Shown here: positions 21,856 through 36,993 of the stretch, one piece after another
Numbering within the stretch: the first letter of the stretch is position 1
Layout: the number at the start of each line of letters is the position of its first letter
Program-made: the position numbers and the translations under genes
The notes under the pieces: generated by a model
The model's database searches: none
The model's input: only the letters and a program-made list of their open reading frames with translations
What the model was told of the DNA's origin: nothing
From: Bacteroidota bacterium
GTDB taxonomy: Bacteria; Bacteroidota; Bacteroidia; Flavobacteriales; Flavobacteriaceae
Length of the DNA: 64,000 bases
Reading direction: 5' to 3'
NCBI GenBank assembly: GCA_031431275.1
Contig: JANPDC010000156.1
Span: 28,345 to 92,344 of the forward strand

Positions 21856-23343
21856 CTATTCTGTTTTTAATTCATCCACAATTTTTCTGTCATTAGAAAG
21901 TCTAGGAACTTTATTTTGACCGCCCAATTTCCCAATCGACTTCATATAATCTTGAAATCCATTTTTAGGAACTTTTGTGATAACTAAATTTTTCAAAACT
22001 TTACCAACTACCAAATCGTCGTAATAAATGTTTTGTTTACGCATTTCATCATTAATCAATAATGCGAATTTTTGAATATCAAGGGGTTCTTTTTCGAATT
22101 CAATAAACCATTCGTGATAGGGCAAACCAGAAATTGGTGTGATTTGAGGTGCTACAGTAAATTCATTTATCGAAATGTTGGTATTTAACATGGCTTCTTT
22201 GATAGCAAATTCAACTTCTTTGCCAATTACGTGCTCTCCAAAAGCCGAAATATAATGTTTGATTCTACCTGAAACTATCACTCGATAGGGTTTTAATGAC
22301 GTGAATTGTACTGTATCGCCAATATTATATGCCCAAAGTCCCGCATTCGTGGAAATTATCAAAACATAATTCACATTTAGTTCCACTTCGCCAACTGTGT
22401 AACGTTTAGGACTATCAGAGAAAAATTCTTCTGATTTTATGAATTCGTAAAAAATTCCCGAATTTAATAGTAACAACATTCCTTTTTCTTTTTGAGAATC
22501 TTGGTAAGCAAAAAATCCTTCTGATGCTGGAAAAAGTTCAATGGAATCTACTTTTCTGCCAATTATGTTTTCAAATTTAGCGCGATAGGGTTCAAAATTT
22601 ACGCCACCATAAATAAATAGATTAAAGTTTTTGAACAATTCTCCAACTGGTTTTTTGGTTTTGATTTGTAATTTTTCAAAATACATCTGAACCCAAGAAG
22701 GAATTCCAGAAATCACTGTCATATTCTGATCAAACGTTTCTTCGACAACCGCATTTACTTTTGTTTCCCAATCTTCAATGCAATTTGTTTCCCAACTTGG
22801 CATTCGGTTTTTTTGTAAATATTTTGGAATAAAGTGTGCTACAATTCCTGATAATCTGCCAATTTTAATTCCGTTTTTTTCTTCCAATATTGGACTTCCT
22901 TGTAAAAAAATCATTTTTCCATCAACAAAAGCAGATTTTTTTGTCTCATGAATATACAACAAAATCGCTGTTCTTGCCGCTTGAATATGAGTTGGCATTG
23001 ATTCTTTAGTCAAAGGGATGTACTTGGCGCCAGAAGTTGTTCCAGATGTTTTAGCAAAATAAATTGGTTTCCCGTTCCAAAGAATGTCTTTTTCACCAGC
23101 CACAACTCGATCAACATAGGGTCTCAAAGCTTCATAATCTCGAATCGGAACTCGTTTTTGAAACTCATCATAAGTTGTTATTTCAGAAAAAAAATGATCT
23201 TTACCAAACTCAGTGTTTTTTGCTTGACGAACCAAATCCAAAAAAACTTTTTGTTGAGTTGCTATGGGATTATTCGACCAAAGTTGCGTTTGATTATAAA
23301 CCCGCCTGGCATAAATTTTAGATAAAAAAGTTTTTAAAGACAT
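21856..23343 (-). CDS. GH3 auxin-responsive-promoter family protein (acyl-adenylate-forming fold)
   Basis: Typical Bacteroidota GH3 N-terminus (NPIATQQKVFLDLVRQAKNTEFGKDH), SGTTSGAKYIP, and length. Confidence 0.85.
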   Translation of the reverse strand: MSLKTFLSKIYARRVYNQTQLWSNNPIATQQKVFLDLVRQAKNTEFGKDHFFSEITTYDEFQKRVPIRDYEALRPYVDRVVAGEKDILWNGKPIYFAKTSGTTSGAKYIPLTKESMPTHIQAARTAILLYIHETKKSAFVDGKMIFLQGSPILEEKNGIKIGRLSGIVAHFIPKYLQKNRMPSWETNCIEDWETKVNAVVEETFDQNMTVISGIPSWVQMYFEKLQIKTKKPVGELFKNFNLFIYGGVNFEPYRAKFENIIGRKVDSIELFPASEGFFAYQDSQKEKGMLLLLNSGIFYEFIKSEEFFSDSPKRYTVGEVELNVNYVLIISTNAGLWAYNIGDTVQFTSLKPYRVIVSGRIKHYISAFGEHVIGKEVEFAIKEAMLNTNISINEFTVAPQITPISGLPYHEWFIEFEKEPLDIQKFALLINDEMRKQNIYYDDLVVGKVLKNLVITKVPKNGFQDYMKSIGKLGGQNKVPRLSNDRKIVDELKTE

Positions 23344-23408: not shown

Positions 23409-23912
23409 TTATTTAGTTTTACTTTTATTTGGTTTTGGATTTGCAAGTTTCTCCTCTTCTGATAGTAAGTTTCTTAATTTAGTATCAGCATCATTTTTTT
23501 GAACGTCGTTTATTTGAGGAACTTCCGTTTTTGAGGCTAAAATTGAATCTTTATTGACTTTTTGATGTTCTAAATCTCCATTCAAAACTTTAACGACTGA
23601 TTGCAAATAAGCCTCATTTTTCTTTAGAGCATTTGATAATGAATCTGATTTTAAAGCCAAGTCAATGGCATTTTGCCTCAATCCTGATGAAGCATAGCCT
23701 GGAATATATTCTCGAAGCGGAGTAAAAGCTATTAAAAAAGTAGTCATTGTTATGATGATTACTGTTCCTAATGAGGCAAATACAAAAACATTCATTAGAT
23801 TTAATTTTAATGAAAATGTTTCCTCAAATGTATCTTCATTGAGAATTATTAAACGTCTTTTTGTAAAGAGTTTTTTTTTTAGTTTTTGTCGTTTGAGTTG
23901 CTTTTTAGACAT
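23409..23912 (-). CDS. Membrane-anchored coiled-coil protein resembling only the N-terminal part of Flavobacteriia M23 peptidases
   Basis: Basic N-terminus, one TM helix (VFVFASLGTVIIITMTTFLIAF) and a helical region. It ends at 167 aa with no LytM/M23 motifs. Confidence 0.45.
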   Translation of the reverse strand: MSKKQLKRQKLKKKLFTKRRLIILNEDTFEETFSLKLNLMNVFVFASLGTVIIITMTTFLIAFTPLREYIPGYASSGLRQNAIDLALKSDSLSNALKKNEAYLQSVVKVLNGDLEHQKVNKDSILASKTEVPQINDVQKNDADTKLRNLLSEEEKLANPKPNKSKTK

Positions 23913-24370: not shown

Positions 24371-27142
24371 ATGTCAAAAATCAACATAGTAATTACAATA
24401 TTATTCCTTTCTTTTTCCACTTTCTCCCAAAAATCTAAACTTACTGGAATTGTTGCTGATAGTGAAAAAATACCTGTTTATAATTCCGTAGTAGCGTTGT
24501 TAACTCCAAAGGATTCTATTTTATACAAATTTGTTCGTTCAGATAAAGATGGGAAATTTGAAATTAAAAATTTAAAATCAGGAAAGTTTATTTTAATGAC
24601 TTCTCACAGTCAATACGCAGATTATACTGATGAAATTTCGATTGAAGAAAACCAAACTAAAATAGAAAACATTGCTTTAATTAGCAAAAGTAAATTATTA
24701 CAAGAAGTAATTATTAAAACGGGTTCTATAAGAATTAAAGGCGACACAACTAGTTACAGAGCCAGCGATTTTAAAGTTGGCGCCAATGCAAATGTGGAAG
24801 AGTTACTCAAGAAACTTCCAGGAATTCAAGTTGATAAAAACGGAGAAATAAAAGCCATGGGAGAAACTGTTAAGAAAGTTTTGGTCGATGGCGAAGAGTT
24901 TTTTGGTGACGATCCTGGCATGGCAGTAAAAAATTTAAGAGCCGATGCAGTTAAAGAAGTTCAGGTTTTTGACAAAAAAAGCGACCAAGCAGAGTTTACG
25001 GGTATAGATGATGGCAATAATCAAAAAACCATCAATCTTAAACTAAAAGACGATAAAAAGAAAGGTTATTTTGGTAAATTGGATTTAGCCAATGGACCAT
25101 TAACCGAAATAGATTCAAGATACAACAGCAATTTACTAATTAGTTCTTTCAAAGGAAAAAGAAAAATTTCTGGCTTTTTGCTTAATGGAAATACTGGTCA
25201 AGACGGATTAGATTGGCAAGATAATGACAAGTTTGGTGGCGGAAATGAAAATGTTTCTATGAATATGGATGACGATGGAAATGTAAATTACCAATGGACT
25301 GGTGGCAATAATGATGATGAACCGCAAGTTGATACTCAGAATGGATTTATAAAAAACACTAATGCTGGCTTGCAATACAGCAATAAATGGAATGACAAGC
25401 ACAATTTGAACCTAACGCCAAAATACAACAATCAAATTTACACTAACAACAACAGAAGTTCAAATAAAACTCCATTTGGAATCACACAAATCAACGAAAA
25501 CACTAATAAAGTTAGTAACATTTTTCGAAGTAATTTCAAATTAAATGCTGTATATGATGTGAAGTTAGATACTATGAATTCACTGAAAATTACCACAAAG
25601 GCTAATTTTTATAATACAGAAAGTAGTGAATTTACAGATGGTAAAACGACAGATGAAAATGATATTCTAAAAAACAAACGTCAGATAAACACAAGTTCTG
25701 ATATTGATAAAAAAAGTTATTTTGCTAGCTTTTTATACAAACATAAATTCAAAAAAGCACGACGTACATTGGCTGTAAATTATACTTTTAATTCGCTAAA
25801 TAGCAATACGACAAATGTTTTAAAATCAGAAAATGAAAGTTATAATTTAGGTGTTTTATCAAATACTATAAACCTGAACCAAAATAGAATTGGTGAAAAA
25901 GTAAATAATAACAATAGTGTTAATTTGACTTATTCTGAACCGTTAACGAAGAAATTTACACTTCAAATAGGCTATGAAATCAATCGTAATCAAGGAAAAA
26001 ACAATCAATTGACTTATGATTTTAATCCAGTTTCAAATAATTATGATGTTTTAGCAAACGATTTATCTAACCAATTCAAACAAACAATTACAGTTCATAA
26101 ACCAAATGTAAAATTAAATTATACCGCAAAAAAAATCAATTTTAGTATTGGCAATGGACTTGGTTTTACAAGTTTTGACTTACTGGATCAAACTTTAAAC
26201 AAACAATACAATCGCAATTTTACCAATATTTTTCCATCGGCAAATTTTAATTATAAATACAAAAGCAATTCAAACTTGCAAATTAGTTACAACGGTGCAA
26301 CAAAACAGCCAACAATTGACCAATTGCAACCTTTGCGAAATAATCAAGATTTTTTCAATCAAGTAATTGGAAATCCAGATTTGAAACAATCGTTTTCGAA
26401 CAACATCAATATTTCTCAAAACAGTTACAATGTTTTATCAGATTCCTATATCTATCAAAGCATAAATTTTAGAACAACAAGCAATTTAATTTCATTCAAT
26501 CGAGATATTGATTTAGAAAACGCCAAAACAATAACAAAGCCAATCAATACAAATGGTAATTTTTCGGGTAGTTATTATTTAGGATATGGTTTTAAAATAC
26601 CAAAAATAGATTTGCGAATAAACCTAAATCCGTCAATAAATTTTAGTAAATCAAAGAATAGCATCAATAATATTGAAAACACTTCGACCAATATAAATTC
26701 TAGTTTTGGAATAAACCTTTCTAAAGAAAAGGAAAAAGTATACAATTTTTCGATAAGTAATGATTTTTCGAACAGTAGAAATTCAACAAGTCAAAATAGC
26801 GAAATAAAATCATTTAACACTAACAATTTGAGTCTAGAAATTGGAGTTTTTATTAAAGAAAAATGGAAGATATCGACTGATTATAATTTATTTATACGTC
26901 AAAAAACAGCCGATTTTCAAGACAATTTAACCAATCAATTGTGGAATGCTAGGTTGCAACGCACCTTTAGAAATGATGAATTCACGGCTTATGTTTTAGT
27001 TAGAGATATTCTGAATCAGAATATTGGAATACGACGTTTTAATTTCGAAAACACAATTGCCGAAGTACAAAATGATAGACTAAAAAGATATGCTATGATT
27101 GGCTTCACGTGGAACTTTAAAAATAAAGGCAATGTCAAATAA
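24371..27142 (+). CDS. Outer-membrane beta-barrel protein, TonB-dependent-receptor-like, with an N-terminal CarboxypepD_reg domain
   Basis: Signal peptide, LTGIVADSEK...VVALL, and a plug-like VEELLKKLPGIQVDKNGEIKAMGE. Long N/S/T-rich beta-strand region that ends in an aromatic-rich strand. Confidence 0.8.
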   Translation: MSKINIVITILFLSFSTFSQKSKLTGIVADSEKIPVYNSVVALLTPKDSILYKFVRSDKDGKFEIKNLKSGKFILMTSHSQYADYTDEISIEENQTKIENIALISKSKLLQEVIIKTGSIRIKGDTTSYRASDFKVGANANVEELLKKLPGIQVDKNGEIKAMGETVKKVLVDGEEFFGDDPGMAVKNLRADAVKEVQVFDKKSDQAEFTGIDDGNNQKTINLKLKDDKKKGYFGKLDLANGPLTEIDSRYNSNLLISSFKGKRKISGFLLNGNTGQDGLDWQDNDKFGGGNENVSMNMDDDGNVNYQWTGGNNDDEPQVDTQNGFIKNTNAGLQYSNKWNDKHNLNLTPKYNNQIYTNNNRSSNKTPFGITQINENTNKVSNIFRSNFKLNAVYDVKLDTMNSLKITTKANFYNTESSEFTDGKTTDENDILKNKRQINTSSDIDKKSYFASFLYKHKFKKARRTLAVNYTFNSLNSNTTNVLKSENESYNLGVLSNTINLNQNRIGEKVNNNNSVNLTYSEPLTKKFTLQIGYEINRNQGKNNQLTYDFNPVSNNYDVLANDLSNQFKQTITVHKPNVKLNYTAKKINFSIGNGLGFTSFDLLDQTLNKQYNRNFTNIFPSANFNYKYKSNSNLQISYNGATKQPTIDQLQPLRNNQDFFNQVIGNPDLKQSFSNNINISQNSYNVLSDSYIYQSINFRTTSNLISFNRDIDLENAKTITKPINTNGNFSGSYYLGYGFKIPKIDLRINLNPSINFSKSKNSINNIENTSTNINSSFGINLSKEKEKVYNFSISNDFSNSRNSTSQNSEIKSFNTNNLSLEIGVFIKEKWKISTDYNLFIRQKTADFQDNLTNQLWNARLQRTFRNDEFTAYVLVRDILNQNIGIRRFNFENTIAEVQNDRLKRYAMIGFTWNFKNKGNVK

Positions 27143-27164
27143 AAATTTCAAAAAATTAAATATC

Positions 27165-27923
27165 ATGAAACAATTACTTTTCATATTTGCATTAACGTGT
27201 TTTAAAACTCCTTTATTCTCTCAACAATTTATTGAGAAAGCCACAATTGAATTTGAAGTAACGACCAATTTAAAAAAATCTATGAGCAACGATAGTTGGG
27301 CAGAAAAAATGAAAGATAACATGTCTGATTTAAAAATATCTTATTACAACTATTCATTTGCAAACAACAAAAGCATTTATAAGTTTGAACGTTGGAGTCC
27401 AAAAACTAAAATTGCAAAGTACGAAAAAGACGAAGATGAAGAGAATATTTGGTTTTATGATTTTACTTCAAAAACGATGAATAGCCAAAAACAAATTGCA
27501 GGTACCGCCTTTGTGATGAACGACAGTATTGGCAATATAGAATGGAAAATTACCAACGAAAATCGAGAAATTGCAGGTTATAATTGCCGCAAAGCGGTAG
27601 GCAAAATATTTGATGATGTTTATGTTTTTGCTTTTTATACAGACGATATTACTATTTCTGGCGGACCATGCTCCATAAACGGTTTACCTGGAATGATTCT
27701 AGGACTCACAATACCAAGATTATACACGTCGTTTATTGCTACAAAAGTAACTACATCAATAATTAGCGATGATATAAAACCAGTACTGGCTAAAAAAACA
27801 TATAATTCTAAAGAATTAAAAACAACCTTAACCGAAACCACCAAAGATTGGTTTAGTTGGGGCGATGACAAAGAGGAAAACAAACGGCAAAAAAACCTTT
27901 TCTTTTGGAACGCTTTTTTATAG
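27165..27923 (+). CDS. GLPGLI family protein
   Basis: Signal peptide from the internal ATG (MKQLLFIFAL), the motif INGLPGMILGL, and the usual pairing with the preceding barrel protein. Confidence 0.85.
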   Translation: MKQLLFIFALTCFKTPLFSQQFIEKATIEFEVTTNLKKSMSNDSWAEKMKDNMSDLKISYYNYSFANNKSIYKFERWSPKTKIAKYEKDEDEENIWFYDFTSKTMNSQKQIAGTAFVMNDSIGNIEWKITNENREIAGYNCRKAVGKIFDDVYVFAFYTDDITISGGPCSINGLPGMILGLTIPRLYTSFIATKVTTSIISDDIKPVLAKKTYNSKELKTTLTETTKDWFSWGDDKEENKRQKNLFFWNAFL

Positions 27924-27945: not shown

Positions 27946-28251
27946 TCAAGAGTTCCATAAGTTCGGGAACAACTGTTTGTGTTTGTAACATCTAAATTCT
28001 TGTTTGTTAATATTAAAAATTGCAGATAAATAAGAAAGTGTAACAGCATCTAAACTTCTTAAATTTAACGAAACCTCTTTTATAGTTTCTAATCCATAAA
28101 ATTCATTTAGCATTTTCCAATCTTGCCAGTTTCCATATTCTAATACTTTAGCAATAAACTGAACATTATATTTTTTTAAGTCAAAATTATCTTTATCCAC
28201 ATCCCAAAAAAGATGTTTAGAAAAGTCGTTAATAGTGATTTCTTTGTTCAT
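27946..28251 (-). CDS. Small DUF6922-like protein, of the kind usually found with AbiEii-type nucleotidyltransferase toxins; here without a partner
   Basis: Pattern LFWDVD...(Y).F.I.KVLEYGN..DW..L...YG...IKE......R.LD..TLS.L...F.I....FRCY, as I recall it for that family. No toxin gene is adjacent. Confidence 0.45.
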   Translation of the reverse strand: MNKEITINDFSKHLFWDVDKDNFDLKKYNVQFIAKVLEYGNWQDWKMLNEFYGLETIKEVSLNLRSLDAVTLSYLSAIFNINKQEFRCYKHKQLFPNLWNS

Positions 28252-28256
28252 AGTTA

Positions 28257-28371
28257 CAAAAATACAAAATTTCTACAAAACCATCGTCAACTGAATTCGT
28301 TTTCTATCTTCGTCAACCTCAACTACTTTTACGGTAACGTGTTGGTGGAGTTTTACAACTTCGTTTACATC
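28257..28371. repeat. Left direct repeat: displaced copy of the tex 3' end (last ~32 codons, stop, and 16 bp)
   Basis: Hand alignment to 31369-31483 at an offset of 3112. It is identical over 28257-28359, then shows 2 mismatches in the last 12 nt. Confidence 0.95.
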
Positions 28372-30183
28372 TTAAAAACTAAACCCAAACAGTGTTCCTT
28401 CTTCACTTTTGTCATTTAGTCTCAAAACAATTTGATTGTCTTCAAAGTAAACAATATCTTCCTGTTCATCAATAGGTAAATCCGATTTAATTACTGATAA
28501 AATATACTGAATATTAAACTCTTTTAAAAGTTTATCAAGTAATTCAAGTAATCTTAATTTAATTCCATTATCTTGGGTTGAAAGTACATCGTCATGATAA
28601 ATAAATCTAAAAAAAGATTGACTGTTATAACTTGTTAATATTGCTAAATCAAAAGCTACACACAATATTTTTTTATAAGTTGTTCCTTCATCTTTTGCAG
28701 TATTTCTATTAGAACTATCTAATACTTTGGGTGGGGGAAATTCAATATTGTTATTTGTATTTAAGTGCCAAGAAATATTTGCACTTTCATCCATAATGGA
28801 TTTGTAAAAAGAATGAAACTTTTTTCTTATATCATCATATTTCTCGTTCAGCTCTGTATTTCTTGATAAAAATTTTAACTTATCAATAGTGCTTTCAATA
28901 TCACTTTTCTTATCTTCAATTTCATCTTCTTTTGAAAAAATTAAATCAATATAATTAATTTTAGAATTAACAATGCTAAGCTCTTCTTCTTTTTTTGCTA
29001 ACGATTTTTGATATGTTTTAAACTTTTTAAAAGTATCTGTGTCTTGTAAAACAGATAAAAGGTCTTCTTTCTTCGAATTTAATTCAATTAATTTTGAATT
29101 TATTAGTTCTAATTCTTTTTGCTTATTCGATAAAATCTTTTTGATTAACTTATTTCTTTCAATTGTAATTTTAGAATTAAATTCTAATAATTCTTGGTAG
29201 TCCTTTTTGATTTGATCTCCAAAATAAATTCCCGTCTCTTCAAAAACTTTTTGAACTTTGTTTAATTCAAATGCAAAATTATTTTGAACTGATTTGTTTA
29301 ATTTGTCAATTTCATAATTCAAATTATATGATAATGAATTATATTCACTTATTGAGTTTTCAATGTCTAATATACCGTTTTGTATAAGTTTTTTATCTTG
29401 TTCATAAAAATTAAAAGCGTCTATTTTCTTTTCAATTTCTAAATTATTTTCTTCAATTGATCTTTTTTCAGCAATTAATGAATCTCTATCTTTCTTATCA
29501 ATTTTATATTCTTTTCTAAGAGTTCCAATAAATCCATTTAACTCATCTATTTCATCATCGTTTTCATATTTTTTAAGTAATAAATCGCCATCAAACCCTA
29601 ATAGATCAAAAATAAATGGCTTCCAATATTTGTGTTTGCCATTTGAAAATTTAGATAACTGAAAAACATCTTTGTAATCGTCAGGAGGCGTTCTTAGGCT
29701 ATAACTTAACACTTTTCTATAATCATAATTTTTATCGAAGAAAAAGGCGTAATTTAAAGATTCTGATAAAATTTGCTTGGCTTTATCAATTGAAATATTG
29801 TCGTAGTAAAAATTTAATGGGGGTTGAAAATCTTGACTTCTTACTTCTGAAATATTAAATGATATTTTAGTATTATTATCTATTCCTCTTTTTATAGTTA
29901 AAAATTGTCCTTCATTGAGTTCTATTTCTAAATAGAAAATATATTCATTAAAAATCGATTTATTATCGGCATCAATAAGTTTTAAAAGAAAATCTTTTTT
30001 ATCAATTTTTTTTAACAACAAAAAATCTATTAATTCAGCAACTTTAGTTTTACCAAGATCGTGAGAATTTTTTTTATCTTTTAAATCTGTTTGAACATCA
30101 GCATAAATCACATTTAATCCATTTAAATTGAATGAAATTTTTTTAAAATTTTCTTTGTTACAATATAATTTACTTAACTTCAT
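28372..30183 (-). CDS. ABC/SMC-like ATPase with a long coiled-coil insert (DUF2326 / ABC-3C / LmuB-DdmC-like)
   Basis: N-terminus MKLSKLY...ISFNLNGLNVIYADV, then a degenerate Walker A NSHDLGKT (aa 39-46) followed by ELIDFLL. Heptad-rich K/E/L/N region at about aa 215-470. C-terminal Walker-B-like FIYHDD (aa ~527-532) and a QYILSV strand. Confidence 0.75.
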   Translation of the reverse strand: MKLSKLYCNKENFKKISFNLNGLNVIYADVQTDLKDKKNSHDLGKTKVAELIDFLLLKKIDKKDFLLKLIDADNKSIFNEYIFYLEIELNEGQFLTIKRGIDNNTKISFNISEVRSQDFQPPLNFYYDNISIDKAKQILSESLNYAFFFDKNYDYRKVLSYSLRTPPDDYKDVFQLSKFSNGKHKYWKPFIFDLLGFDGDLLLKKYENDDEIDELNGFIGTLRKEYKIDKKDRDSLIAEKRSIEENNLEIEKKIDAFNFYEQDKKLIQNGILDIENSISEYNSLSYNLNYEIDKLNKSVQNNFAFELNKVQKVFEETGIYFGDQIKKDYQELLEFNSKITIERNKLIKKILSNKQKELELINSKLIELNSKKEDLLSVLQDTDTFKKFKTYQKSLAKKEEELSIVNSKINYIDLIFSKEDEIEDKKSDIESTIDKLKFLSRNTELNEKYDDIRKKFHSFYKSIMDESANISWHLNTNNNIEFPPPKVLDSSNRNTAKDEGTTYKKILCVAFDLAILTSYNSQSFFRFIYHDDVLSTQDNGIKLRLLELLDKLLKEFNIQYILSVIKSDLPIDEQEDIVYFEDNQIVLRLNDKSEEGTLFGFSF

Positions 30184-30412
30184 TGAAAATAAAAGTATCT
30201 GTTAATTCTTGATATTTGATTTTATCTAATATGAATAAAAAATTCAAAGCATAGGGATAATTTTCCTTTGCTTTTTCACCTAGTTCATTTATAACTTTTC
30301 TTTGTAATTTGTCATACTCAATATTATACTGCGCTCTTAATAATTTTATTATATATGCGCTAATATTTATTACCGAATAATCTGGATTAGTATGTCGATT
30401 TGGTTTTATCAT
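30170..30412 (-). CDS. 80-aa adaptor (ABC-3C middle-component / LmuC-DdmB-like)
   Basis: Its size and position between effector and ATPase, with overlaps on both sides (ATGA at 30409-30412; 14 nt at 30170-30183). Helical pattern SVINISAYIIKLL...YALNFLFILDKI. Confidence 0.6.
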   Translation of the reverse strand: MIKPNRHTNPDYSVINISAYIIKLLRAQYNIEYDKLQRKVINELGEKAKENYPYALNFLFILDKIKYQELTDTFIFNEVK

Positions 30413-31371
30413 TTTAATCCTATTTCACAATTCATATACATATAATGTAAAAATGTAAATATATGTCTTTTTCCTCCTTTTAATTCTTTATTTCCGTCTG
30501 CTATTTTTTGATAAATAAAAATAAAAACCTCATCAAACAAATCAAAGTTATCTCTTTTCAAAGTAATCAACCCGCTTAATTCTGAAGTTATATCAAAATA
30601 ATAGTCTCTTAAATCTGAATTTTTGTCGTCTTCTAAAAAATTTTGAATCTCTATAAATTCTGAATAAGATTTCAACAAAATTTCGTTTTCATAATATTCT
30701 TTACTTAATAAATTCTTTTTGTTTTTTTCGTCTATTTCTATTTTATCAAAATCATATTTAACTTCTTCAACTTTTGCTTTAATATCTTCGGCAATCTTAG
30801 ATAACTGTTTTTTAAATTCTAAAATAATTTCTTTTATTTCTTCGTCAGAAAAATCAAATGGGATATGATGTTTATCTAAACCGAAAGCCTTTATAATATC
30901 TCTGTTTTGATTCAAATATCGATTATTAATAGTCTCTTTTCCTAAAATTTCTATATTTGTTAAACCTGTTTTCTTCTTTATATTATTTAAAAGTCTTTCC
31001 CCTTTTATCCCAGTATATTTTCTATTAGTGAATATTAAATAATTATCAATTTCATTGTTATCTTTTAACTTTTTTATTTTTGGAATTTCAATATTTATTA
31101 AGGTTTCAAACTCTTTGTCTGAACACGAAGCTTGAGAATTACTTGTAAATTTAGATTGAATAATAAATTTTCCTTTCCAAGATTCAGATTCAGATGGAAA
31201 ATGATTAGCCGTTCCTGAAAATTTTCCATCTCTTCCTCCATCTTTTCCCTCGGAAAATTCAATGATACCAATACCTAATATTTTTTGACAAATTGTATTT
31301 ACTAAATCTTCAAATTTTTTATCTTCAAGTTGTTCTAATCTGTAATCCATTAACTTTATTAATTTTTTCAA
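30409..31371 (-). CDS. Effector: N-terminal Mrr-cat-type PD-(D/E)xK nuclease fused to a helical C-terminal domain (LmuA/DdmA-analogous)
   Basis: FEDLV (aa 20-24), GKDGGRDG (aa 42-49) and FIIQSK (aa 69-74) match the restriction-endonuclease Mrr_cat layout. The track start is a TTG; the ATG at 31350 (MDYRLEQ) is the more likely start. Confidence 0.7.
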   Translation of the reverse strand: MKKLIKLMDYRLEQLEDKKFEDLVNTICQKILGIGIIEFSEGKDGGRDGKFSGTANHFPSESESWKGKFIIQSKFTSNSQASCSDKEFETLINIEIPKIKKLKDNNEIDNYLIFTNRKYTGIKGERLLNNIKKKTGLTNIEILGKETINNRYLNQNRDIIKAFGLDKHHIPFDFSDEEIKEIILEFKKQLSKIAEDIKAKVEEVKYDFDKIEIDEKNKKNLLSKEYYENEILLKSYSEFIEIQNFLEDDKNSDLRDYYFDITSELSGLITLKRDNFDLFDEVFIFIYQKIADGNKELKGGKRHIFTFLHYMYMNCEIGLK

Positions 31372-31376
31372 AAATA
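31369..31376 (-). promoter_or_regulatory. Possible -7 box (TATTTTTG) upstream of the islet operon, lying inside the duplicated segment
   Basis: Plus-strand caaaaata is the reverse complement of TAnnTTTG, 19 nt upstream of the ATG at 31350. The same octamer at 28257-28264 precedes the DUF6922-like gene. Confidence 0.3.
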
Positions 31377-31483
31377 CAAAATTTCTACAAAACCATCGTC
31401 AACTGAATTCGTTTTCTATCTTCGTCAACCTCAACTACTTTTACGGTAACGTGTTGGTGGAGTTTTACAACCTCGTTAACATC
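31369..31483. repeat. Right direct repeat, which forms the functional 3' end of tex
   Basis: See the left repeat. It includes the tex stop at 31385-31387. Confidence 0.95.
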
Positions 31484-33511
31484 GCTCACAAAACCTGCTT
31501 TGAGTTGTGAAATATGAACCAAACCACTTTCTTTGGTGCCAATATCTACAAAACAACCAAAAGCAGTAATGTTATTGACAATTCCGGGCAAAATCATTCC
31601 GGTTCGAACGTCTTTTATGGTTTTTACATTTGGGTCAAATTCGAAGACTTTAGCAGATTTTCTTGGGTCTAAACCTGGTTTTTCGAGTTCTTTGATGATA
31701 TCTTTTAAGGTTAATAAACCAATTTCAGGAGTTGTATAATTTTCTGGTTTTACCAAAGCCGTTTTTTCTTTATTGGCAATCAAATCATTGACAGAAAGTT
31801 TTAAATCTTTTGCCATTTTCTCAACAATTCCGTAGGCTTCTGGATGAACTGCAGAATTATCTAAGGGATTTTTTCCGTCTTTGATTCTGATAAAAGCCAC
31901 GCCTTGTTGATAGGCTTTGTCGCCCAATCTTGGTACTTTTTTGAGTTGTTTTCTGTCTTCAAATGGCCCATTGTCAGATCGGTATTGAACGATATTTTCT
32001 GCCAACTTCTCCCCTATTCCACTTACATAACTCAGCAAATACTTGCTTGCCGTATTAATGTTTATTCCAACCGAATTTACGCAACGAATAACGGTCGCAT
32101 CTAATTCATCTTTCAATTTGCTTTGGTCAACATCGTGTTGGTACTGCCCTACTCCTATTGCTTTTGGGTCTATTTTTACTAATTCTGCCAACGGATCTGA
32201 TAATCGTCGACCAATCGAAACCGATCCACGAACTGTAACATCATAATTAGGAAATTCGTCTCGAGCAATTTTACTGGCAGAATAAACCGATGCTCCAGCC
32301 TCAGAAACTACAAAAACCTGAACCGGTTTATCAAACGTAATTTTCTTGATAAAAAACTCAGTTTCGCGACTTGCAGTTCCGTTTCCGATAGAAATTGCAT
32401 CAATTGAATAGGCATTTACCATTGAACGAATTTTTTTCATCGCCATTGCATCTTCTTTTTGTGGTGCGTGCGGATAAATGGTTTCATTGTACAACAAATC
32501 ACCTTTTTCGTCTAAACAAACAATCTTACAACCGCTGCGAAAACCTGGGTCAATTGCCAAAATTCGCTTTTCGCCCAAAGGTGGCGCCAATAACAATTGC
32601 CCCAAATTGGTGGCAAAAACATTGATTGCAGTAACATCTGCTTTGGCTTTGGCTTCTTGCAAAGTTTCGTTTGAAATGGCAGGATTTAATAATCTTTTAT
32701 ACGAATCTTCAATTGCCAATTGCACGTGCGAGATTGCTGGCGAATTGCTGTTTTTAATGATTAAATTATCAATTAAATCATAGGTTTCATCTATATCGAC
32801 TTCGATTTTTAACTTTATAAATCCTTCGTTTTCAGCACGAAGCATTGCTAGTAATCGGTGCGAAGGCGTTTTTGCTAAATTTTCTGACCATTCAAAATAT
32901 TGTACAAATTTTTGTGCCGCTTCTTCTTCGGATTTTTTCTTAACAACTTTGGTTTCTATAACCGATTTTCGTTGAAACAAGCGTCGCAAACTTTGTCGAA
33001 CGGCAATATTTTCATTTATCCATTCGGCAACAATATCTCTTGCACCTTGCAATGCTGCATCTTCGTTAATAACATTTTCATTGATATACTGTGTTGCCAA
33101 GAAATCGACATCATCATTATTCTGTGCTAAAATTAATTTGGCTAATGGTTCCAATCCATTTTCACGAGCGACATCGGCACGGGTTTTTTTCTTCTTTTTA
33201 AACGGCAAATAAATATCTTCGAGTTCTTGCAAATCGAAACTATTTTCAATTTTAAGTTTTAAATCAGGCGAGAGTTGACCTTGCTCATCAATACTTTTTA
33301 AGATTGATTCTTTTCGTTTTATAATTTCATCGAATTGCTTATTTAACTTTGCAATTTGCTCTATAAAAACCTCATCAAGATTGCCAGTTTGGTCTTTTCT
33401 GTATCTAGAAATAAACGGAATCGTGCAATCTTCGTCTAATAATTTTACGGTTGCTTCGATATTTTTGGGCAAAGTTGCTACTTGTTTGGCTATGAATTGT
33501 ATGTTGGTCAT
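31385..33511 (-). CDS. tex: Tex-like transcription accessory protein (YqgF/HHH/S1 domains)
   Basis: N-terminus ATVKLLDEDCTIPFISRYRKDQTG, a YqgF-like region (ILAIDPGFRSGCK), and a C-terminal S1 domain (GIVNNITAFGCFVDIG...GLVHISQL). Confidence 0.95.
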   Translation of the reverse strand: MTNIQFIAKQVATLPKNIEATVKLLDEDCTIPFISRYRKDQTGNLDEVFIEQIAKLNKQFDEIIKRKESILKSIDEQGQLSPDLKLKIENSFDLQELEDIYLPFKKKKKTRADVARENGLEPLAKLILAQNNDDVDFLATQYINENVINEDAALQGARDIVAEWINENIAVRQSLRRLFQRKSVIETKVVKKKSEEEAAQKFVQYFEWSENLAKTPSHRLLAMLRAENEGFIKLKIEVDIDETYDLIDNLIIKNSNSPAISHVQLAIEDSYKRLLNPAISNETLQEAKAKADVTAINVFATNLGQLLLAPPLGEKRILAIDPGFRSGCKIVCLDEKGDLLYNETIYPHAPQKEDAMAMKKIRSMVNAYSIDAISIGNGTASRETEFFIKKITFDKPVQVFVVSEAGASVYSASKIARDEFPNYDVTVRGSVSIGRRLSDPLAELVKIDPKAIGVGQYQHDVDQSKLKDELDATVIRCVNSVGININTASKYLLSYVSGIGEKLAENIVQYRSDNGPFEDRKQLKKVPRLGDKAYQQGVAFIRIKDGKNPLDNSAVHPEAYGIVEKMAKDLKLSVNDLIANKEKTALVKPENYTTPEIGLLTLKDIIKELEKPGLDPRKSAKVFEFDPNVKTIKDVRTGMILPGIVNNITAFGCFVDIGTKESGLVHISQLKAGFVSDVNEVVKLHQHVTVKVVEVDEDRKRIQLTMVL

Positions 33512-35559: not shown

Positions 35560-36084
35560 ATGAATTTTACTGCAAATATTTCAAGATTTGAAGGTAGCGA
35601 AATTTTCTGGACTTCGATCATCATTATTCCTAATGAAATTTATCAAGAAATGATTGTGCTTGCGCCAAACAAACGCATTATTTGTACTATAAATAATGAT
35701 TTGACTTTTCATTGTGCGATGATTCCGAAAAAAACATTTCATTACATTATGTTGGGTCGTGATAAAATTAAAACTTTAAAGTTAGATCCAAACGAAGAAT
35801 TTTTAGTTGAAATTATTCCTGATACAAGCGAACTTGGTTTCGAAATTTGCGAAGAACTACAAGAAGTTTTATTTTCTGATCCTGATGGAAATTCGCTATT
35901 CGAAAAACTAACACCTGGACGCAAAAGAAGTTTCTTGGTTTTTATTTCAAAGACTAAAAATTCGCAACTCAAAATAGAAAAATGTTTTGTTTTTTTAGAA
36001 CATTTAAAACGAAATAAAGGCAAGTTCGACCCAATTGTTTATCAAGAAGATTGCCGAAAATTTAGAGCACAAAATTCTTTCTAA
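35560..36084 (+). CDS. DUF1905 / YdeI(OmpD-associated)-family protein
   Basis: The C-terminal pattern F.KLTPGRKRSFLVFISKTKNSQ.KIEK resembles the YdeI family. Confidence 0.55.
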   Translation: MNFTANISRFEGSEIFWTSIIIIPNEIYQEMIVLAPNKRIICTINNDLTFHCAMIPKKTFHYIMLGRDKIKTLKLDPNEEFLVEIIPDTSELGFEICEELQEVLFSDPDGNSLFEKLTPGRKRSFLVFISKTKNSQLKIEKCFVFLEHLKRNKGKFDPIVYQEDCRKFRAQNSF

Positions 36085-36652
36085 TTTTAAATACTCAAAC
36101 TATTCATTAACAAATGTTTAGTTTTTATAATATTTATAATTTATTTACAATCAATAACTTATAAATAATATTTTTCTAATGTTCATAAAAAACTGCAAAT
36201 CGTTGACTATCAACCAAACTTAATTTAACAACTTTTGTTCATAACTTTAGATAGATTTTTAGAACTATTTTTTAGTTGTATTGATATAATTCGTAGTGCA
36301 AAAATCGCAACTAGAAATCCTAATTTAGTTTGCATTATTTTTAGAAAACTTATCAATATAAAATTCTAGTTTATGAACAAGTTTTTTATAAAATCTTATT
36401 TACAATTATTTACTTTTTTAGGTTATCAACCATTGTTTATAAAGTTTTAAAATTGCTTTAAAATGAAACATTTATAACCTGAAAACGATGTTCATAAATC
36501 ATTATAAAAAATCAAAAACTATAAATTTGTTTAATTTCTAATTTTTTATTCTAACTATTAACACGCTATCATAACCATCAAAAATTTAATTTTTTAAATC
36601 TTTTTTTATTTTGTTTTTATTAAATGTTGAAAACTTTCAGAATTCAAGATTT
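36085..36652. other. 568-bp AT-rich non-coding region between convergent genes, with repeated TTATGAACA-type 9-mers (candidate origin, iteron region or ncRNA locus)
   Basis: No ORF of 60 aa or more in any frame. TGTTCATAA at 36180-36188, 36236-36244 and 36489-36497. Inverted TTATGAACA at 36371-36379. Variant TGTTTATAA at 36434-36442. (T)TATCAACC at 36208-36215 and 36423-36431. Confidence 0.4.
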
Positions 36653-36886
36653 TTAAACAATTTCCATTCTATTATTCAAATCATCTAAAATTGATTGAAC
36701 AATTTCGAAATCGTTTTTATGAATTTTTAGAATAATACCACCGTAAGCAAAACTTGCAAAAGGGTCAATAGAAACTAAATTTTCATTTTGAAATAAAAAT
36801 GGAATTCCTTCGTTTTGTAAAATTGATTTTAAAACCACAATTTCGTGAGTATAATTAAAGGTTGCAATAGTTTGAAAATCTTCCAT
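36653..36886 (-). CDS. DUF2007-like small protein
   Basis: 77 aa with the pattern A..LKS.L..EGIP....NE......P........I.L.V...D. Confidence 0.6.
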   Translation of the reverse strand: MEDFQTIATFNYTHEIVVLKSILQNEGIPFLFQNENLVSIDPFASFAYGGIILKIHKNDFEIVQSILDDLNNRMEIV

Positions 36887-36993
36887 ATTTTATTTTTTTG
36901 TAAATATACAAAGTTATTATTTCGATAAATCTTAATACTTAATTCTAATATCTTAATACTTCTTTGTAATTTAGCCAATATTAGAAAAGAATT

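Follow-up and report, generated by a model that had tools for sequence, protein, structure and literature searches.

ATP-binding cassette (ABC) three-component (ABC-3C) systems were reportedly defined computationally by Krishnan, Burroughs, Iyer and Aravind in 2020. All features of that class, that is, a coiled-coil ABC ATPase, a middle component (MC) gene and an effector joining an enzyme to a C-terminal domain (CTD) in one linked accessory operon, are present in the locus described here, a three-gene cassette on the minus strand of a 64,000-nucleotide (nt) stretch of the Flavobacteriaceae contig JANPDC010000156.1 (the whole stretch is hereafter the window). Among experimentally studied systems, the nearest to it are those of the Lamassu family, in which an LmuB dimer keeps the nuclease effector LmuA monomeric and inactive, with LmuC as an additional partner in type II, and in which DNA-end sensing together with ATP leads to the release of LmuA, whose CTD-mediated tetramer is the active nuclease (10.1101/2025.06.23.660979; 10.1101/2025.04.02.646746). 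The Walker A lysine of LmuB (K37/K40) is required, and its Walker B motif is naturally deviant (10.1101/2025.06.23.660979; 10.1101/2025.04.02.646746). Lamassu systems also occur with other effectors, among them the Mrr type of Escherichia coli SE15; these systems protect by abortive infection, and protection needs the ATPase, the effector and LmuC (10.1101/2022.05.11.491447). As detailed below, the window locus, which lies in a Flavobacterium chromosome, is probably a three-gene immune cassette of the ABC-3C/Lamassu family that belongs to the DUF2326 (YydD) clade and would work by a Lamassu-like mechanism.

The cassette consists of three overlapping minus-strand open reading frames (ORFs), namely gene A (ORF 30409-31371, 320 amino acids (aa) from a TTG start), encoding a nuclease-like effector, gene B (30170-30412, 80 aa), an ABC-3C middle component of the MC8 family at the position that LmuC takes in Lamassu, and gene C (28372-30183, 603 aa), an SMC/Rad50-like ABC ATPase (SMC, structural maintenance of chromosomes) of the DUF2326/YydD clade. 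The stop codon of A and the start codon of B share an ATGA at 30409-30412, and B and C overlap by 14 nt (30170-30183), the ATG of C lying at 30183 and the stop codon of B at 30170-30172. Gene A almost certainly starts at the ATG at 31350, giving a coding sequence (CDS) at 30409-31350 and a 313-aa product, because its homologues measure 311-316 aa and begin with MDYRL; the upstream TTG falls within a repeated copy of the tail of tex, the gene next to the cassette. The unique DNA of the cassette amounts to 2,997 bp (28372-31368), made up of an 18-nt leader and the three genes. Its GC content is 23.5%, as compared with 29.2% on average in the window, which makes it the 3-kb stretch poorest in GC, within the bottom 0.2% of 3-kb windows, and GC at third codon positions is 15-17% in the cassette genes and 20-30% in the adjoining ones. 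No integrase or transposase was found within or beside the cassette in the window.

The product of gene A has a two-domain layout, with an Mrr-like PD-(D/E)xK domain at its N-terminus (~aa 1-160) and the Pfam family CTD12 (C-terminal domain 12 of ABC-3C systems) at its C-terminus (~aa 162-311). The CTD12 match is clear (E 5.8e-18) and was shared by all 30 homologues. Mrr_cat was matched at E<=0.1 by 27 of the same 30 proteins, with a best value of 7e-6, and the homologue from a predicted viral contig clears the cut-off of that profile at 22.1 bits. The motifs FEDLV, GKDGGRDG and QSK are all present in A, and residues E14, D37, G39, D41, Q65 and K67 (313-aa numbering, in which D37, D41 and K67 correspond to D44, D48 and K74 of the 320-aa ORF) are invariant among the homologues, which share 58-87% identity. 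In the AlphaFold2 (AF2) model of A, with a predicted local distance difference test (pLDDT) score of 80, the secondary structure elements (H10-25, E31-34, E40-47, E59-67, H79-97 and E103-108) form an alpha-beta-beta-beta-alpha-beta core in the order expected of PD-(D/E)xK enzymes, and the invariant residues map to the predicted first helix, just ahead of the second strand and to the third strand. The PADLOC profile PDC-S73 also hit the N-terminal domain (4.6e-13).

Gene B matched Pfam MC8 (ABC-3C middle component 8) at E 8.2e-8, exceeding the gathering score, and MC6 at 4.5e-5. In all related loci examined, an 80-aa MC8/MC6 gene lies between A and C, and B is 31% identical to an Agrobacterium gene annotated as 'middle component 8'.

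As for gene C, its product matched Pfam DUF2326 at 1.7e-20 and, over its full length, the PADLOC models PDC-M68B (9.7e-50) and LmuB (6.3e-7). Among 54 diverse members of the C family, PDC-M68B was matched by every one and the LmuB model PDLC03859 by 36, with a best value of 5.7e-14, so that PDC-M68B fits the family far better than LmuB does; the PADLOC candidate system PDC-M68 is incomplete in the window, as no PDC-M68A model hit A or B. The AF2 model of C (pLDDT 82) shows an N-terminal half-head, long helices spanning aa 199-464 (~265 aa) and a C-terminal half-head. When this model was compared with solved and modelled structures using Foldseek, the best match was 9a6c, an integrative model of Bacillus subtilis YydD-YydB (E 1.4e-23, template modelling score 0.54), followed by LmuB chains 9uxh_F (1.7e-15), 9hqu_A (5.8e-14), 9hqx_B (1.6e-13) and 9nyg_B (6e-10), which come from Vibrio and Salmonella LmuACB complexes in DNA-bound and nuclease-sequestering states, and then by SMC heads, Rad50/SbcC (1e-9 to 1e-7), JetC and MukB. 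By this ranking, the predicted fold of C belongs firmly to the ABC clade of SMC/Rad50-like proteins, with Lamassu closest. When the three cassette proteins were searched against the sequences of Protein Data Bank (PDB) chains, with single sequences and two profiles, nothing but coiled-coil noise came back, so that among these PDB comparisons it was the fold comparison alone that tied C to YydD and LmuB; no NCBIfam profile matched the cassette proteins. In the P-loop NSHDLGKT, residues N39, H41, G44, K45 and T46 are invariant among 26 homologues, as are Y529, H530, D531 and D532 of the Walker B strand FIYHDD, and two of these residues, K45 of Walker A and D531 of Walker B, stay invariant even in an alignment of diverse C proteins at 27-57% identity. 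We additionally noted a signature-like motif, KDEGxTY, alongside the Walker B HDD, and conserved residues of its own at the coiled-coil apex (~aa 301-322).

Set against described systems, the window cassette does not differ in kind from ABC-3C systems and constitutes one further instance of them: it has the same class of Pfam families (CTD1-12, MC1-8 and DUF2326, represented here by CTD12, MC8 and DUF2326), the same order of effector, middle component and ATPase, overlapping genes and a mobile accessory distribution. With type II Lamassu/DdmABC (Vibrio cholerae and Salmonella LmuACB; 9uxh, 9hqu, 9hqx, 9nyg, 9nxx) it shares the three genes and the overall plan, that is, an ATPase of ~600 aa (a 'short' Lamassu), a small middle protein and an effector in which a C-terminal adaptor follows an N-terminal enzyme; the Vibrio clade also resembles window C in having no zinc hook. 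The parts nevertheless belong to other families, since type II systems combine a Cap4 effector with CTD7 and MC3, as opposed to Mrr-like, CTD12 and an 80-aa MC8 in the window, and window C, unlike type II LmuB, lies in the DUF2326/YydD sequence clade that PADLOC models apart as PDC-M68B. LmuC itself is MC3 in V. cholerae and MC2 in Lamassu-Mrr, whereas B is MC8. The adaptor family of gene A has, on the other hand, been reported from type I Lamassu (Bacillus LmuAB), where BcLmuA carries CTD12 (10.1101/2025.06.23.660979); these systems differ in having two genes, no middle component, a Cap4 effector and an LmuB sequence family unlike that of C. For Lamassu-Mrr (E. coli O150:H5 SE15), we took the sequences from the supplement of Millman et al. 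2022 and obtained a weak Mrr_cat match plus CTD6 (1.5e-34), MC2 (4.3e-54; a 168-aa winged-helix protein) and an AAA_23-type head. The three-gene operon, the SMC-like ATPase and the nuclease motif pattern FE ... GxxDxGxD ... QxK are common to both systems, and both effectors match approximately positions 2-60 of Pfam Mrr_cat, whereas CTD6/MC2/AAA_23 in Lamassu-Mrr contrasts with CTD12/MC8/DUF2326 in the window. The last comparison concerns YydB-YydC-YydD of B. subtilis, of which YydD is the founding DUF2326 protein and, as stated, the best structural match of window C; its partner effector YydB, which we take to be a metallophosphoesterase-like protein, is unlike window A. Because YydD is the closest structural relative of C, the modelled fold implies that the poorly studied yydBCD operon of B. 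subtilis 168 would belong to the ABC-3C/Lamassu type, with another effector; a literature search returned no functional work on yydBCD in defence.

We regard a Lamassu mechanism as likeliest because C shares with Lamassu the Walker A lysine (K45, at a position equivalent to LmuB K37/K40) and a deviant Walker B (HDD) and, like the Vibrio clade, lacks a zinc hook. The present analysis shows the gene organisation, the families of the three proteins, the ATPase fold, the conservation of nuclease and P-loop residues and an accessory, mobile distribution; stoichiometry, trigger, release, oligomerisation and the abortive outcome are modelled on Lamassu systems, and we infer them by homology. A dimer of C together with B would hold one copy of A through CTD12, keeping its Mrr-like PD-(D/E)xK nuclease monomeric and inactive, until the heads of C meet foreign DNA in the form of ends or of structures derived from phage or plasmid replication or from palindromes. 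ATP binding and hydrolysis by C would then release A, and the freed effector may oligomerise via CTD12 and cut DNA indiscriminately, such that the infection would be aborted or the plasmid eliminated.

What a sequence-only reading of this DNA had described in the letters was borne out throughout, and its classification of the locus as ABC-3C/Lamassu-like, with an Mrr-type head and a DUF2326-type ATPase, is supported: both overlaps exist, the three effector motifs are there with key residues invariant across the family, the two ATPase motifs proved to be real and family-invariant, its coiled-coil insert is recovered as the long helices of the AF2 model, and the ATPase does fall within the ABC/SMC clade, with a fold closest to YydD and LmuB. 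The profile hits that it predicted were likewise obtained, DUF2326 for the 603-aa protein and an ABC-3C middle component for the 80-aa one, together with the full-length LmuB match. Its Mrr-type head finds support at the level of the family; the window protein itself scores E 0.075 and 13.6 bits against Mrr_cat, below the gathering cut-off of 21. That sub-threshold score is one of several observations that weigh against the interpretation proposed here. The Foldseek search with the full-length two-domain model of A ranked LmuA 9nxx_D at the top (E 0.042) and scattered PD-(D/E)xK nucleases after it, all of them weak, non-significant matches, a result that is probably due to the two flexibly linked domains. 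No PADLOC LmuA model matched A at E<=1; B had no PADLOC match and hence none to LmuC; and the sequence profiles of A and C matched no solved structure. Several motifs of C are odd throughout its family: the first glycine of Walker A is replaced by N, D532 takes the place of the usual catalytic glutamate, no H-loop histidine was identified (SVIKSD stands at the presumed position) and the CxxC zinc hook is absent. Given these unusual motifs and the missing hook, the ATPase cycle and dimerisation of C may differ from those of solved LmuB. Moreover, BLASTP and hhalign revealed no similarity between the window effector and the two Lamassu-Mrr effectors, for which reason we rejected filing the cassette as Lamassu-Mrr; judged by sequence, it is a different subtype that has nothing beyond its overall plan and its nuclease superfamily in common with Lamassu-Mrr. 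Finally, no experimental work on the CTD12/MC8/DUF2326 subtype came up in the literature that could be searched. The earlier statement that an Mrr head combined with a DUF2326 ATPase is unstudied holds only narrowly, in this sense, since Mrr-effector Lamassu (CTD6/MC2) has been shown to be protective.

Homologues of the cassette proteins are widespread. C has at least 408 close matches across Bacteroidota, where the Joint Genome Institute name is 'YydD (DUF2326 family)', and A has 726, many of them named 'ABC-three component system protein' by NCBI. An exhaustive profile search with C (E<=1e-3) yielded 1,446 clusters at 50% identity, nearly all of full-length proteins of ~600 aa. The complete triad with overlapping genes recurs in Flavobacterium, in Pedobacter, on a viral contig and on Agrobacterium plasmids. 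The predicted viral contig, IMGVR_UViG_3300038365_000077 (locus L085, 4837-7815), carries it at 55-60% identity, which indicates that the cassette also travels with phage or prophage. The identities to the Agrobacterium-plasmid triad are 38% for A, 31% for B and 32% for C, and the Prokaryotic Genome Annotation Pipeline (PGAP) names the three genes there 'ABC-three component system protein', 'ABC-three component system middle component 8' and 'DUF2326 domain-containing protein'. Near the triad, an ISL3 fragment was seen in Pedobacter alone and an integrase in Agrobacterium alone. Given the numbers of homologues, the recurrence of the triad and the PGAP names, its architecture is that of a large, cross-phylum and already catalogued family. 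The sequence-only reading had thus overstated the case in calling the locus a likely uncharacterised variant, as it is defined in Pfam, named by PGAP, modelled as a PADLOC candidate, widespread and a cousin of structurally solved systems. As an observation on one of these plasmids, the triad of pAtLMG305 from Agrobacterium tumefaciens (locus L086, 14919-24718) sits inside a small defence island, flanked on one side by a site-specific integrase and a RHE_PE00001-family gene and on the other by a HEPN/Toprim-associated gene and Shedu SduA.

In the window, the cassette lies at the 3' end of tex (31385-33511, minus strand; Pfam Tex_N, Tex_central_region, Tex_YqgF, HHH_3, HHH_9 and S1), a conserved housekeeping gene for a transcription accessory protein whose 3' end is the insertion site. 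Two direct copies of the tex tail bracket the cassette on the minus strand. The proximal copy (31369-31483) comprises the last ~96 nt of the tex CDS, with its stop codon at 31385-31387, and 16 nt downstream, whereas the distal copy (28257-28371) is a pseudo tex 3' end that begins directly behind the stop codon of C and stops 5 nt short of the start codon of the DUF6922 gene (27946-28251, minus strand; Pfam DUF6922, 1.3e-19), the native downstream neighbour of tex. The repeat is exact over 103 nt (31369-31471 = 28257-28359) and extends to 115 nt with 2 mismatches. The closest tex relative, a cassette-free Flavobacterium metagenome-assembled genome whose Tex is 91% identical to that of the window, shows the empty site, with the order tex, DUF6922 (72% identical) and AbiEii (7e-12). 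Directly after tex in that genome (locus L005, 12145-13016), the DUF6922 gene overlaps that of the AbiEii nucleotidyltransferase toxin, a type IV toxin-antitoxin pair; the DUF6922 gene of the window is an orphan without an AbiEii partner. Since such a pair follows tex in this relative, different defence-type modules occupy the site downstream of tex across genomes. No tRNA and no Rfam family were detected near the islet, and a tRNA-targeted island was ruled out on that ground.

The cassette is found directly after tex also in F. aestuarii, F. covae, F. columnare (many genomes), F. branchiophilum and Flavobacterium sp. CF108, so that, window included, six Flavobacterium lineages have the site occupied. 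In four of these five (F. aestuarii, F. covae, F. columnare and F. branchiophilum), an equivalent, more diverged tex-tail copy with 87-97% identity stands 16-28 nt past the stop codon of C, and each distal copy is most similar to the tex tail of its own genome. Within Flavobacterium, the identities of the cassette proteins track those of Tex. A scan with the Tex protein across species-representative genomes recovered the triad beside tex at 0 of 80 tex loci, and the tex position is common to only a subset of lineages; the cassette is clearly accessory. These results uphold two further claims of the initial reading: the triad is the only cargo of an inserted AT-rich islet, as evidenced by the empty site in the closest relative, the low GC content and the repeat flanks, and it is not a core operon conserved at this site in all relatives. 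The tex-tail direct repeat that brackets the cassette and the occupancy of the tex site in six lineages are new. Two scenarios could fit this pattern, one of an old, vertically inherited insertion with repeat-mediated precise loss and gene conversion, the other of repeated capture at a fixed site.

With regard to expression, the consensus of the Bacteroidota -7 promoter box is TAnnTTTG. The sequence TATTTTTG at 31369-31376 (minus strand), within the repeat and 18 nt upstream of the ATG of A, matches this box and is a candidate promoter of the cassette, as its distal copy is for the DUF6922 gene, both suggestions being drawn from the letters of the box. A scan for sigma-70-type promoters and terminators performed no better than on shuffled sequence. 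The cassette would probably be expressed either from this promoter-like box in the repeat or by read-through from tex.

Two more novel readings of the locus, which we weighed jointly, are together rather unlikely. One dwells on the site: this may be a defence cassette without recombinase or promoter, gained and lost at the tex stop codon by means of a 75-130-nt duplication of the tex tail, and tex would, if so, serve Flavobacterium as a site dedicated to the docking of immune cassettes. The other dwells on the machine, in that the DUF2326/YydD clade may work unlike solved Lamassu, for example as a switch that binds ATP and answers to another trigger, as could be suspected from the lack of a zinc hook, the failure to identify an H-loop histidine, the aspartate in place of glutamate and the middle component of just 80 aa.

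Among the alternatives to a Lamassu-like immune cassette, direct, non-abortive restriction strikes us as unlikely. According to this explanation, A would be a type IV (modification-dependent) or McrBC-like nuclease, with the ABC ATPase as the subunit that tracks DNA or licenses cleavage, cutting the invader selectively and sparing the host. The N-terminal domain of A does match Mrr_cat, the catalytic domain of modification-dependent restriction enzymes, and plasmid elimination, compatible with such selective cutting, is likewise achieved by DdmABC-type Lamassu (10.1101/2025.06.23.660979; 10.1101/2022.05.11.491447). However, no modification-reading or DNA-binding domain was found in A, which beyond the nuclease has only the CTD12 adaptor, and the Lamassu systems with nuclease effectors that have been tested, Mrr type included, act by abortive infection.

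The tex site bears on two other explanations. That the cassette is a selfish addiction or stabilisation module, toxin-antitoxin-like and mainly securing its own retention at tex, is very improbable: it is indeed compact and encodes a potentially toxic nuclease, Lamassu is toxic when expressed at high levels (10.1101/2025.04.02.646746), and the tex-downstream site of a relative houses the DUF6922 and AbiEii toxin-antitoxin pair, but the flanking repeats would permit clean loss, many relatives evidently lost the cassette or never had it, and it has the sensor-plus-effector layout of immune systems whose anti-phage activity is proven. We give hardly any credence to a housekeeping DNA-repair complex, in which a PD-(D/E)xK nuclease would take the place of Mre11 in an analogue of SbcCD/Rad50-Mre11. 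Such a role would accord with the matches of the C fold to Rad50 and SbcC at 1e-9 to 1e-7, with the proposed derivation of Lamassu from SbcCD (10.1101/2025.04.02.646746) and with the parallel between cassette and Tex identities within Flavobacterium, yet the cassette is patchy, being missing from the closest tex relative and from 80 of 80 species-representative tex loci, has direct-repeat flanks and a foreign composition, occurs on plasmids within a defence island and on a viral contig, and encodes a C protein nearer to LmuB and YydD than to Rad50. Equally hard to credit is an inactive relic with intact ORFs and no remaining function, to which the deviant motifs of C and the lack of a separate promoter region (only 18 nt from repeat to ATG) might point, as those motifs are invariant family-wide and hence family traits instead of decay, the three ORFs are full-length with their overlaps kept, and relatives at 74-96% identity retain the same protein lengths.

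Read as a Lamassu-like immune cassette, the locus turns three hypothetical Flavobacterium genes into a recognisable Lamassu-family immune system, one that existing profile libraries already capture. The subtype is abundant in Bacteroidota, resides on Agrobacterium plasmids and is also present in three fish pathogens, F. columnare, F. covae and F. branchiophilum. It may be relevant to phage therapy against F. columnare. As a target, the subtype would be sensible though incremental, in that it would carry the Lamassu mechanism over to a second clade of ATPases, and the tex-tail duplication provides a small handle on the gain and loss of such cassettes.

The closest relatives keep, within 0.5-3.7 kb after tex, homologues of the window genes at 23409-23912 and 21856-23343. 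In the window, a plus-strand gene pair (24371-27923), situated between DUF6922 and the conserved orf167/GH3 genes, encodes a 923-aa TonB-receptor-like protein with CarboxypepD_reg and outer membrane protein beta-barrel domains and a 274-aa Porph_ging/PNGase-like protein. This pair is missing from the corresponding interval in related tex loci, and thus forms another variable segment within this hot spot. Elsewhere in the window, an AT-rich stretch at ~36084-36990 (GC 0.20-0.21), with no Rfam match and a single 77-aa ORF that lacks a Pfam match, lies between an OmdA-like gene and an RNase R-like gene.

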